A DNA stretch of 64,000 nucleotides from an uncultured beta proteobacterium (GCA_963829995.1 CAWHKW010000031.1:238358-302357); one strand, 5' to 3'; counted from the stretch's first letter, positions 41,735 through 45,188 are shown. The notes: generated by a model from the sequence alone, not told the origin. Program-made: numbers and translations.

Positions 41735-42263
41735 CTAGCGCGGCCGGAGCGCTGCGGCCAATCGATCGTAGGCTGGGGCCGAATAGCCCTGAACGCGCCG
41801 CTCGCCGGCCACGAGCAACGGCACGCCGCCGCTGCCACCGGCACCGATAAATGCGCGCATGCCGTCAACATTCTCTATGTCGTATTCAATGTAGTTGATC
41901 TGCGCTGCGGCCAGGTGCGCTTTCGCTCGTTTGCAATGGCCGCACCACACCGCGGTGAAAAGTGCCACGTCGCCGGTGCGCGGTGCGCGTGCGGCGCTGA
42001 TCCGCCCCTTGAGCGCTCTTTTCGAGCTGCTCCCGGAAGCGCAACACTTCCGCAGGTAACGGGCTGGACGGCAGATTGCGAAATTCCAGCGTATTGGTAC
42101 GCGCCCGATCGGCCGGTGGTTTGTCGCTGTAAGTAATCTCACCATCGGGACCGACCGCCTTGTAAACGGTATCGGCGCTCGTAGACATCGCGAGTGCCAG
42201 TGTGATGACGAACACGGCGCTGCGCCGAACCCACATCGTTGTCATTCCGCCTGGCGTTGCCAC
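41735..42263 (-). pseudogene. DUF4124-glutaredoxin domain protein, single frameshift near 42000
   Basis: N-terminal part (42263-41886): signal peptide plus YKAVGPDGEITYSDKPP. C-terminal part (42145-41735): VALFTAVWCGHCKRAK thioredoxin-fold CxxC. Confidence 0.55.
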
Positions 42264-42676
42264 TCGTCGAGCTGCTGTTCGGTCGGCAAAATCGGCTTGT
42301 CACGGTCCTTGCTGACCAAGCATAAAAAACCGAGCGCGCTGTCGGGCGCGGCGTAAAACTGGTGCCACGTCAGAGGATCGACGGTCACAAGATCGTGCTC
42401 GGCGATCGGCTGCACTTCGGTCCCGATGCGAACCGTACCCCGGCCGCGCAGGATCAGCACGGCGTGGGTGTGCCGGTGCTGTTCGAGCGTCGAATACCCG
42501 CCGGGCGCGATTTCGAAGTAACGCAGTTCGCTCGCGTGGTCCGGTTGCGAGAACAGTACCTGCCGCGTGATGTCCTTGAACGGCGCGCTGCCTTCGGCTT
42601 TGTATTGAAGCCGGTCGACGTCCTGCCAGCCGAAGGCGCCGGATGGATCGTTCAGGAGTCTGCGGATCGTGCTCAT
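42242..42676 (-). CDS. Cupin domain protein
   Basis: RYFEIAPGGYSTLEQHRHTHAVLILRGRG cupin motif. 4-nt overlap with the upstream RLP. Confidence 0.65.
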   Translation of the reverse strand: MSTIRRLLNDPSGAFGWQDVDRLQYKAEGSAPFKDITRQVLFSQPDHASELRYFEIAPGGYSTLEQHRHTHAVLILRGRGTVRIGTEVQPIAEHDLVTVDPLTWHQFYAAPDSALGFLCLVSKDRDKPILPTEQQLDEWQRQAE

Positions 42677-43788
42677 GCGGTAACCGTCTCGGCCGCCATC
42701 GCGACCGCGTTGACGAACTCGGTGCTGCGCGCGGCCAGTTGTTCGCGCGCCGACAACAATGCACCGCCTATCAGCAGCATCGAGTCACGACCGTACTCAC
42801 CGACCATCTCTGCCGCGCGGTCCACACTCATGCCTCCGGCCGGAGTAGGCAGCGCCGGCTTCAAGTCGTGCCATGGTTGGGTGTTGTTTTTGGCAATGGC
42901 GCGGCATGCCTCGCGCGAATACGAGAAGCGGCCACCATGATTCGGAAATATCACTGCGTCGGCGCCGAACAGCCGAAAGAGTTTTCCGAACAGTGCCTCG
43001 GGCGCAATGCGAAGGCCGCCCAGTGAGGGGTGAGCGATGAACATCATGTCCTCGAACTCGCGTTTCAGACCAACCAAAGTTGCGACGCCGCACACCATCG
43101 GCGCAATCAGCACCAGTCGCACACCCTCGCTGAGTGCCAGTTCAATTTGCGCGCGCATCTGGTCGTGATGGCCGTACAGACTGGGCGCGTACAACGTGCG
43201 GCCGCCGCGGGCGGCGTTGGACTCGCTGACGGCCTGCTGGCACGCACGTACGCGCTCGGCGAACGGCGCACTGCGTTGATTGGCCCACCCATGATCATCC
43301 TTGATCACGTCGATGCCGGCGCCTGCGAAAACTTTGCATAGGTGCACCAGCGACTCGATCGTCGAACCAATCGGCTTCAGTGCGGTGCACGTCAGCGGGC
43401 GCTCCAGCGCGCCCGTGTGGCGGCGCAGTCCGGCGATGCCCTGATTCGGGCCGCCCCAGACGCGAGCGAATGCCGCCGGCACTTCGACATCGATCAGCTC
43501 GACGTCGGGCTGCAGCGAGGCGTTGCCGAAGAGCATGTTCATCAACTGTCCGGCATCGTCGCCGATCGTTTCAGCGCTCAAGGCCAGGCGCGCCGTGTGC
43601 GTACCGTCGTTGTTGGAGGTCACCTCGTCCACACGTGCGACGATCGTGTCGAGTACATGCGAATCGCTGACTGAAGTCGCAAGCATCTCGATGCTTTGCT
43701 CGAGAGCGAGTTGCTGCGCTCGATGGGCGGCGTCGGGGCCTGTTACCCGCAGCCGGTACGTGGCACTGATGCGCAGCGGATCGGTCAT
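42673..43788 (-). CDS. RuBisCO-like protein (form IV RubisCO large-subunit family)
   Basis: RubisCO core (…GIDVIKDDHGWANQ…, …PSLGGLRIAPEA…). The likely start MTDPLRISATY at 43788 is 6 nt after the GS-like stop. Confidence 0.75.
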   Translation of the reverse strand: MTDPLRISATYRLRVTGPDAAHRAQQLALEQSIEMLATSVSDSHVLDTIVARVDEVTSNNDGTHTARLALSAETIGDDAGQLMNMLFGNASLQPDVELIDVEVPAAFARVWGGPNQGIAGLRRHTGALERPLTCTALKPIGSTIESLVHLCKVFAGAGIDVIKDDHGWANQRSAPFAERVRACQQAVSESNAARGGRTLYAPSLYGHHDQMRAQIELALSEGVRLVLIAPMVCGVATLVGLKREFEDMMFIAHPSLGGLRIAPEALFGKLFRLFGADAVIFPNHGGRFSYSREACRAIAKNNTQPWHDLKPALPTPAGGMSVDRAAEMVGEYGRDSMLLIGGALLSAREQLAARSTEFVNAVAMAAETVTA

Positions 43789-43793
43789 GCCAG

Positions 43794-45188
43794 CTAAATC
43801 ACTTCGAAGTACCGCTTCAACTCCCAATCGGTCACCGCGTCCTGCCATTGCCTCCACTCCCAATCGCGGGTCGCGGCAAAGTGATCGACGAAAACATCAC
43901 CGAACCAGTCGCGTGCGGTGTCGCTGCGGCGAAAGATGTCGGTTGTTTCCTTCAGCGAACGCGGCGCGCGCGGAATGTTTTCGGCGCCTTGGTTGGTTCC
44001 GGTAATCGGCGGTGCCGTCAGCTTCATCTTCTTCTCCATGCCGTGCAAGCCCGCAGCCAGCAGCGCCGCGACTGCGAGATACGGATTGATGTCCGATCCC
44101 GGGCAGCGCGTTTCAAGCCGCGTGCTTTTTGGCGAGCCCGGAATCACGCGGAAGCTCGCGGTGCGGTTATCGACTGCCCACGTCGGTTTGACCGGCGCCC
44201 AGAAGCCGTCGACCAGGCGTTTGTAGCTGTTCACGGTGGGCCAGAACATCGGGGCGAATTCCATCAACACCGCAATCTGCCCGGCGAGGAAGCTCTCGAA
44301 CATCTTGCTCATGCCCGACCGGCCTTTGGCATCGAAAAACAAGTTCTTCTTGCCGTCGGTCATCGATTGATGCACGTGTCCGCTGCAGCCTGGGTAATCC
44401 GCGCTCCACTTGGCGATGAAGCTCGGCGTGATCCCGTACCTCGCGCCGATCTCCTTCGCGCCGCTTTTGAACAGCACGCCCCGATCAGCGCACTCGAGCG
44501 CGTCGGAGAACTGGATCGCGGCTTCATACACGCCGGGCCCGGTTTCGGTGTGTAGCCCCTCGATCGGCACTCGGAACAGCAACATCTGATCCATCAGCGC
44601 ATTGAAATATTCGCGATTCGCGTTCGCGCGCACCAGCGAGTAGCCGAACATGCCCGGCGTCAGCGGCGTCGGGTCGACCCCTTTCTTCGCAGCCCAGCTC
44701 TGTGGCGTTTCGGCAAAGTTGAACCACTCGAATTCGAGTCCGCACATCGGCTGGACGCCGAGCTTCTCGGCGCGCTTGATCACTGTCTTCAGCAGTTGCC
44801 GGGGGCAGATCGGGAACGGTGTCCCATCCGCATTGATGAAATCGCCCAGAAAAAACGGCACTTGATCGTCCCACGGCACGTTGCGCCCGGTGGCCAGGTC
44901 AAGCTGCACCATCGCATCCGGAAATCCGTGCTGCCAACCGATCACATGCGCGTTGTCGTACACGCTGTCGGTCATGTCCCAGCCGAACACGACGTTGCAG
45001 AATCCAAATCCGCCGTCGACGGCAGACAAGAACTTGTCCTTGTGCAGATACTTGCCGCGCAGCACGCCGTCGATGTCGGTGACGGCCACCTTGACTTTGC
45101 CCGACGCGGAGCTTTGCACCGCCTTGACCGGGTCGCTGAGGGGGTAGTCGCCGGGCGCCGGCGTTCGGGTCTTGCCTGCCATCTTCAC
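43794..45188 (-). CDS. Glutamine synthetase family protein (type III / gamma-glutamyl-amine ligase-like, PuuA-type)
   Basis: GS catalytic domain (…GLHTETGPGVYEAAI…, …NRTASFRV…); 464 aa. Confidence 0.75.
   Translation of the reverse strand: MKMAGKTRTPAPGDYPLSDPVKAVQSSASGKVKVAVTDIDGVLRGKYLHKDKFLSAVDGGFGFCNVVFGWDMTDSVYDNAHVIGWQHGFPDAMVQLDLATGRNVPWDDQVPFFLGDFINADGTPFPICPRQLLKTVIKRAEKLGVQPMCGLEFEWFNFAETPQSWAAKKGVDPTPLTPGMFGYSLVRANANREYFNALMDQMLLFRVPIEGLHTETGPGVYEAAIQFSDALECADRGVLFKSGAKEIGARYGITPSFIAKWSADYPGCSGHVHQSMTDGKKNLFFDAKGRSGMSKMFESFLAGQIAVLMEFAPMFWPTVNSYKRLVDGFWAPVKPTWAVDNRTASFRVIPGSPKSTRLETRCPGSDINPYLAVAALLAAGLHGMEKKMKLTAPPITGTNQGAENIPRAPRSLKETTDIFRRSDTARDWFGDVFVDHFAATRDWEWRQWQDAVTDWELKRYFEVI

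Follow-up and report, generated by a model that had tools for sequence, protein, structure and literature searches.

We analysed a 64,000-nucleotide stretch of DNA from an uncultured beta proteobacterium (GCA_963829995.1, CAWHKW010000031.1:238358-302357; hereafter the window), in which positions 41735-45188 of the minus strand carry four co-directional, closely spaced genes: a glutamine synthetase (GS)-like gene, a gene for a RuBisCO-like protein (RLP), a cupin gene, and a frameshifted gene for a DUF4124-glutaredoxin-like (Grx-like) protein. The functional unit of this cluster is likely to be the RLP and the cupin by themselves, which by sequence are orthologues of the pairs Rru_A1998/Rru_A2000 (Rhodospirillum rubrum) and RPA2169/RPA2170 (Rhodopseudomonas palustris) and would form the core of a 5'-methylthioadenosine (MTA)-isoprenoid shunt, with the GS-like and Grx-like genes as lineage-specific neighbours. 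The locus would then be an ordinary one and not a new pathway, because the pair is orthologous to the characterised pair of R. rubrum and because the two neighbours accompany it in one lineage only. A first-pass annotation had assigned the four minus-strand genes to these families, and open reading frames (ORFs) together with Pfam matches agree with it for all four.

The placement of the RLP among RLP and RuBisCO structures, a step proposed in the first-pass annotation, puts it nearest to 3QFW (378 residues), its best match in the PDB (340 bits, E = 1.9e-100, 46.6% identity, residues 2-363), with which it shares the active-site signature. Other structures score far lower: the best YkrW enolase (2OEK) reaches 108 bits (4.5e-30), form III RuBisCO 82 bits, the NonPhoto protein 3NWR 67 bits, and the Photo proteins 2QYG and 1TEL 59-67 bits; the clade placement is read from these scores. 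Across 46 aligned family members, 3QFW among them, the signature residues that are at least 97% conserved (N89, K138, K163-D164-D165-H166, H253, G285-G286-R287-F288, and P316-A317-G318-G319) are all present in the window protein. Set against the YkrW enolase, the protein has Asn89 at the position of the Lys98 base, KDDH for KDDE, and the motifs GGRF and PAGG.

Other identities of the RLP were considered and rejected. The YkrW/MtnW 2,3-diketo-5-methylthiopentyl-1-phosphate enolase of Bacillus and Geobacillus shares the RuBisCO large-subunit fold, takes part in methionine salvage and is the best NCBIfam match of the RLP, but the window protein scores 156 versus 409 bits and 114 versus 514 bits in NCBIfam, is about 40 residues shorter, and carries Asn in place of the catalytic Lys98. 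The apiose-pathway RLPs (OiaX/OiaC) gave 64.5 bits against an NCBIfam cut-off of 700. Carboxylating RuBisCO of forms II and III gave 93.5 versus 497 and 37 versus 489 bits, with KDDH instead of KDDE and the equivalent of K177 lost. These comparisons place the RLP with 3QFW in a family of short RLPs and not with YkrW, OiaX or form III, and we infer a short DeepYkr-type protein that would act as a 5-methylthioribulose-1-phosphate 1,3-isomerase.

The cupin gene (42242-42676, minus strand; 144 aa; Cupin_2, E = 6e-10) leads to the same system. Among PDB entries it matches 3JZV best, which was deposited under the name "uncharacterized protein Rru_A2000" (58% identity over 120 aa, E = 1.3e-44), and residues E65, H67, H69, H71, H105, Q106 and C119 are conserved across 36 sequences including Rru_A2000. 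The latter is a characterised 1-methylthio-xylulose-5-phosphate methylsulfurylase (PMC4334135, PMC5893883), and the window cupin is its orthologue and is predicted to have the same activity, yielding 1-deoxy-xylulose-5-phosphate (DXP) in a thiol-dependent reaction. The earlier proposal of an R. rubrum-type pair was upheld on both sides, for the cupin by its identity to Rru_A2000 and for the RLP by its place in the 3QFW family. RLP1 of R. palustris and its cupin share their function with the R. rubrum proteins at identities of 53% and 56% (PMC5893883); because this verified pair is similarly distant from R. rubrum, the distances of the window proteins lie within the range of proven orthologues.

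A neighbourhood scan with one genome per species yielded 75 loci encoding RLP relatives, all in metagenome-assembled genomes (MAGs), mostly of Burkholderiaceae and other Betaproteobacteria and in some cases of Alphaproteobacteria; the flanking ORFs were clustered with a filter on GC at third codon positions (GC3), directed against antisense ORFs in high-GC DNA. The cupin gene lies directly 3' of the RLP gene in 70 of the 71 informative loci, with RLP identity reaching down to 45%. Apart from the cupin nothing is conserved around the RLP, and the flanks fall in no fewer than five backbone contexts without relation to one another (AAA-ATPase/UppP with ThiG, Kup and PPK2; gltBD; TsaD/GpsA/HpcH-aldolase; NUDIX; and others). 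The RLP and the cupin behave as a self-contained two-gene module that occurs in many chromosomal contexts. The sole informative locus that lacks a cupin 3' of the RLP (L012:579-2884; RLP 68% identical) may hold a disrupted pair. Another locus (L014, JBLMYK010000279.1) comes from a MAG labelled Gemmatimonadota, where the RLP and the cupin are 64% and 76% identical to those of the window and the flank is gltBD, the same as in several Burkholderiales loci, which points to horizontal transfer or else to a binning error.

The GS-like gene is a conserved backbone gene and not a conserved partner of the RLP-cupin pair. It adjoins the RLP gene in 13 of the 73 informative loci, all of them close relatives, with an RLP identity of 71% or more, that share the synteny AspRS-DUF502-FmdB / GS-RLP-cupin-(Grx) / pirin-DAGK-phosphoesterase; a further locus (L036) encodes an RLP 80% identical and a cupin without a GS-like gene ahead of them. 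Seven GS orthologues (76-86% identity; L076-L082), sampled solely for lying on long contigs, all stand divergent beside Zn_ribbon_8 (FmdB-like)-DUF502-AspRS-NUDIX, as in the window, and not one of the seven has the RLP-cupin pair downstream, where MaoC-TctC-enoyl-CoA hydratase-AMP-ligase (five), an RHH-PIN toxin-antitoxin pair (one) or an ankyrin-repeat gene (one) is found. A single MAG holds both elements unlinked, with the GS-like gene at the aspS locus (L077, JAKOQB010000041) and the RLP-cupin pair elsewhere, beside gltBD (L018, JAKOQB010000021). Among the sister loci the GS-like protein (89-97%) is conserved to much the same degree as AspRS (89-95%), and the RLP to a lesser one (71-87%). 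The region is fluid, and the fmdB side of the GS-like gene is variable too, since three sister loci (L002:2859-4527, L086:315-1983, and L087:272-1942) carry an insertion between the fmdB-like and GS-like genes, made up of genes for a pyrroloquinoline quinone (PQQ)-type sugar dehydrogenase (GSDH) and for a cytochrome c.

The GS-like gene of the window occupies an ORF at 43794-45188 on the minus strand, with 43794-45182 as the likely coding part (about 462 aa): the start is probably the ATG at 45182, which has a Shine-Dalgarno sequence (GAAGGAG) ahead of it, and the resulting 462 aa match the homologues. Only its Gln-synt_C domain (E = 5e-87) passes a threshold. Identities as GlnA, type III GS and PuuA were rejected, with 201 versus 429, 197 versus 470 and 170 versus 650 bits, all below the equivalog cut-offs, and the closest structures, 11ZS and 5DM3, bear generic glutamine synthetase names that state no specific function. 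The protein resembles PuuA/PauA-type gamma-glutamyl-amine ligases and GS-family paralogues in that it aligns full-length (PuuA, 169.7 versus 650 bits) and has Gln-synt_C intact, but it differs from them in falling below every equivalog cut-off.

The Grx-like gene (41735-42236, minus strand) is read in two overlapping frames that match DUF4124 (31.7 bits) and Glutaredoxin (32.8 bits). Alignment to five relatives locates the cause of the +1 frameshift in one additional G in the run at 42005-42008 (minus strand), with CAAGGGGCGG here versus CAAGG[T/C]CGG in the relatives; the additional base is missing from all other homologues as well, which encode 166-170 aa in one frame, and the repaired window protein has 166 aa. 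Elsewhere in the window, a gene for an adenylate/guanylate cyclase-STAND NTPase-TPR protein (35234-38014, minus strand) is broken into at least two ORFs and a middle fragment; the same gene is intact in L086 as a single ORF of more than 887 aa, and the long contigs of sister loci likewise contain split genes. For these reasons a homopolymer assembly error is the likeliest, and probable, source of the frameshift in the Grx-like gene.

The N-terminus of the Grx-like protein (MWVRRSAVFVITLALAMSTSA/DT) has a charged n-region, an 11-residue hydrophobic core (mean Kyte-Doolittle 2.4) and a small-residue cleavage motif, and this signal-peptide-like sequence is followed by DUF4124 and by a thioredoxin-fold domain with CGHC. 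The first-pass description of a periplasmic-signal DUF4124 protein with a CxxC motif, frameshifted in the assembly, fits what we see in each of these respects. A classical cytoplasmic glutaredoxin was rejected, given the CGHC instead of CPYC, the signal-peptide-like N-terminus, and scores of 23 versus 90 bits (GRX_bact) and 43.5 versus 88.6 bits (YruB); in NCBIfam the protein comes closest to the NrdH/YruB-like group, without reaching the cut-off. With NrdH/YruB-type glutaredoxin-like proteins and periplasmic thioredoxin-fold oxidoreductases the protein has in common the thioredoxin fold, the CxxC and the Pfam Glutaredoxin match, but unlike them it is fused to a signal peptide and DUF4124, stays below the NCBIfam cut-offs and is without CPYC. 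It is thus presumably exported and, if so, could not act on a cytoplasmic phosphosugar pathway or on the glutathione adduct of that pathway.

Only in the window's own lineage does a Grx-like gene stand beside the pair. It is missing in two sister loci (L002 and L058) and lies between the GS-like gene and the RLP gene in three others (L007, L009, and L010). Homologues at about 50% identity occur in unrelated contexts that lack RLP, cupin and GS-like genes, and the close homologues (78-96%), which come from metagenomes, all lie in the window's own gene order. The gene order is stable within the lineage, and the metagenome homologues say nothing beyond it. Another conceivable history is an ancestral GS-Grx pair into which RLP-cupin came to be inserted, either before or after the Grx-like gene; the metagenome scan made for it gave only close relatives with the order of the window.

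Within the cluster no intergenic space exceeds 5 nt. The TAG of the GS-like gene (43796-43794) is separated by a 5-nt spacer from the ATG of the RLP gene at 43788, the RLP and cupin genes overlap by 4 nt (42673-42676), and the TGA of the cupin gene (42244-42242) is followed, again after 5 nt, by the ATG of the Grx-like gene at 42236. The first-pass annotation had the overlap right and was right that the GS-like gene lies close upstream of the RLP gene, though the distance it gave, 6 nt, reads as 5. For the RLP gene (42673-43788, minus strand; 371 aa; Pfam RuBisCO_large, E = 4e-16), the longest ORF begins at a TTG at 43863, and the start at ATG 43788 is backed by homologues of 371-373 aa. The deposited RLP annotation (P0001, 391 aa) begins upstream of this ATG, within the 3' end of the GS-like gene.

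The one candidate promoter region for all four genes is the 94-bp divergent intergenic region (45183-45276) between the GS-like gene and an fmdB-type Zn-ribbon gene. A simple scan of 41500-45500 returned no sigma-70-like or other promoter-like sites, and terminator-like sites in the same interval were at chance level (6 versus 4.4 +/- 2.4). Rfam gave no riboswitch, whether of the S-adenosylmethionine (SAM) class or another, before the cluster in the whole window or in 11 related loci, where it found only tRNAs. Co-transcription of the four genes is plausible from the spacing (5, -4 and 5 nt) and from terminators that do not rise above chance, and transcription from the GS promoter probably runs on into the RLP-cupin pair, because the 5 nt before the RLP start leave no room for a promoter of the pair's own.

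On the model of the MTA-isoprenoid shunt, the steps of which are taken from PMC5893883 and PMC6302742, MtnP would convert MTA to 5-methylthioribose-1-phosphate (MTR-1-P) and MtnA would convert this to 5-methylthioribulose-1-phosphate (MTRu-1-P). By homology, the RLP would then turn MTRu-1-P into 1-methylthio-xylulose-5-phosphate (MTXu-5-P), from which the Mn-dependent cupin, together with a thiol (glutathione in R. rubrum), would form DXP and an adduct of the thiol with the methylthio group (thiol-SCH3, a methyl disulfide). Methanethiol would be freed from the adduct and enter methionine synthesis. In the uncultured Burkholderiaceae lineage of the window, this module would have come to lie directly behind a backbone GS-family gene and would probably be transcribed from the promoter of that gene.

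Several points weigh against reading the locus as a shunt module with incidental neighbours. The DeepYkr assignment depends on 3QFW being the DeepYkr RLP of R. palustris. Pfam searches of about 45 ORFs revealed no mtnA, mtnP (or mtnN/mtnK) or O-acetylhomoserine sulfhydrylase (metY) gene in the 64-kb window. The four-gene arrangement is stable in the window's lineage, with spacers of 4-5 nt in about 25 genome and metagenome contigs, and a relocated Grx-like gene remains within the co-directional cluster (L007, L009, and L010); given this stable order, co-expression and some physiological coupling are possible. In addition, the known pathway has an acknowledged gap at the step that frees methanethiol from S-methylthio-glutathione (PMC5893883), and a thiol-disulfide oxidoreductase, were it cytoplasmic, would suggest itself for this step.

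The first-pass annotation had gone further and suggested that all four genes form a variant sulfur-salvage or C-S lyase pathway, so far undescribed, with thiol cofactor handling of its own. In such a pathway the GS-family ligase would make or recycle a gamma-glutamyl thiol cofactor and the Grx-like protein would reduce the methyl disulfide. Close co-directional packing, its retention in close relatives, the thiol that the cupin reaction requires, and the missing methanethiol-release step all speak for such a pathway, yet we regard it as very unlikely, and the extension of the pair did not hold up in the neighbourhood comparison, where both added genes flank the pair in a single lineage. On the GS side, adjacency is confined to the 13 loci of that lineage, the seven sampled orthologues keep their backbone position without the pair, and one MAG carries both apart. 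On the Grx side, the protein would reside in the periplasm (signal peptide, DUF4124) whereas the phosphosugar pathway is cytoplasmic, its CGHC and sub-threshold NrdH/YruB-like match are not those of a classical glutaredoxin, and its gene is patchy and mobile among the sister loci, frameshifted in the window, and represented in unrelated contexts by the homologues at about 50% identity. Substrate drift, in which the pair would act on a 5-deoxy- or another thio-pentulose phosphate and lie outside the MTA-isoprenoid shunt, seems to us more improbable still. The identities to the solved references are only 46.6% and 58%, other methionine-salvage genes are missing from the window, and RLP functions generally diverge between clades, but the family-wide residues are intact, including the His, Glu and Cys positions in common with Rru_A2000, and the R. 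palustris pair has retained its function at a similar distance from R. rubrum.

A regulatory link without biochemical coupling, which would bring MTA salvage under the promoter of the GS-family gene, is rather unlikely in our estimation. That promoter could be nitrogen- or polyamine-responsive if the GS-like protein is a gamma-glutamyl-polyamine synthetase, and MTA recycling could in this way be tied to amine catabolism. The 5 nt between the GS-like gene and the RLP gene, with room for neither promoter nor terminator, the scans for internal promoter-like and terminator-like sites, the full-length though sub-threshold resemblance to PuuA-type ligases, and the origin of MTA in polyamine synthesis (PMC6302742) are consistent with such a link. 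Elsewhere, however, the RLP-cupin module stands behind quite different genes, and therefore no particular regulatory partner is required. Also unlikely, in our view, is a lineage-specific physiological link in which the transcription unit of a GS-family gamma-glutamyl-amine ligase has taken in an MTA-shunt module, with a thiol-disulfide oxidoreductase retained next to it; were this the case, it would imply MTA recycling that responds to polyamines or nitrogen, or a dedicated handling of the methyl-disulfide product.

The preferred reading, an RLP-cupin shunt module beside lineage-specific neighbours, sets the window close to R. rubrum and R. palustris, where a short RLP of the same family likewise lies directly upstream of an Rru_A2000-type cupin and the conserved residues are the same. 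The differences lie in the host, here an uncultured Burkholderiaceae-like betaproteobacterium, and in the position of the pair, 5 nt behind a GS-family gene and without promoter space of its own. It would extend the pair of the R. rubrum-type MTA-isoprenoid shunt to uncultured soil Burkholderiaceae and could be of use in annotation, as such RLPs now bear only generic names, e.g., "ribulose-bisphosphate carboxylase large chain". Adjacency is no ground for annotating the GS-like and Grx-like neighbours as methionine salvage genes, and no new pathway is revealed by the locus.

On either side the cluster is bordered by genes of the opposite strand. Beyond the divergent intergenic region, Zn_ribbon_8 (fmdB-like), DUF502 and AspRS genes (45277-48415, plus strand; Pfam) make up the conserved locus of the GS-like gene, and at the other end a pirin gene (40818-41714, plus strand; Pfam Pirin and Pirin_C), syntenic in the sister loci, is convergent with the cluster and forms its 3' boundary.

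Other parts of the window hold features of different kinds. Positions 1-8265 contain a cluster for phosphonate (2-aminoethylphosphonate-type) catabolism, comprising an aldehyde dehydrogenase, a PhnA-like type I phosphodiesterase, a GntR/FCD regulator, parts of an ABC transporter and a truncated class-V aminotransferase, in which the ORFs at 5537-7297 are apparently broken. At 23038-25289, a gene for a ComA-type phosphosulfolactate synthase is divergent from genes for a sulfatase and an SBP_bac_5 binding protein, possibly an organosulfonate or sulfate-ester locus and one unrelated to the RLP-cupin cluster. Twelve tRNA genes (Arg, Trp, Lys, Asn, Pro, His, Met, three Ser, Gln, and Phe) surround a gene for an RtcB RNA ligase (29227-30447) at 27386-31137 on the plus strand; the GC content of this segment (0.59-0.60) is slightly below that of the rest of the window, and it may be a tRNA-array island or phage-derived. 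Finally, an ATP-dependent DNA ligase gene adjoining an Lhr-type helicase gene, with a 345-aa gene upstream (53156-58780, plus strand), looks like a ligase-associated DNA repair module.

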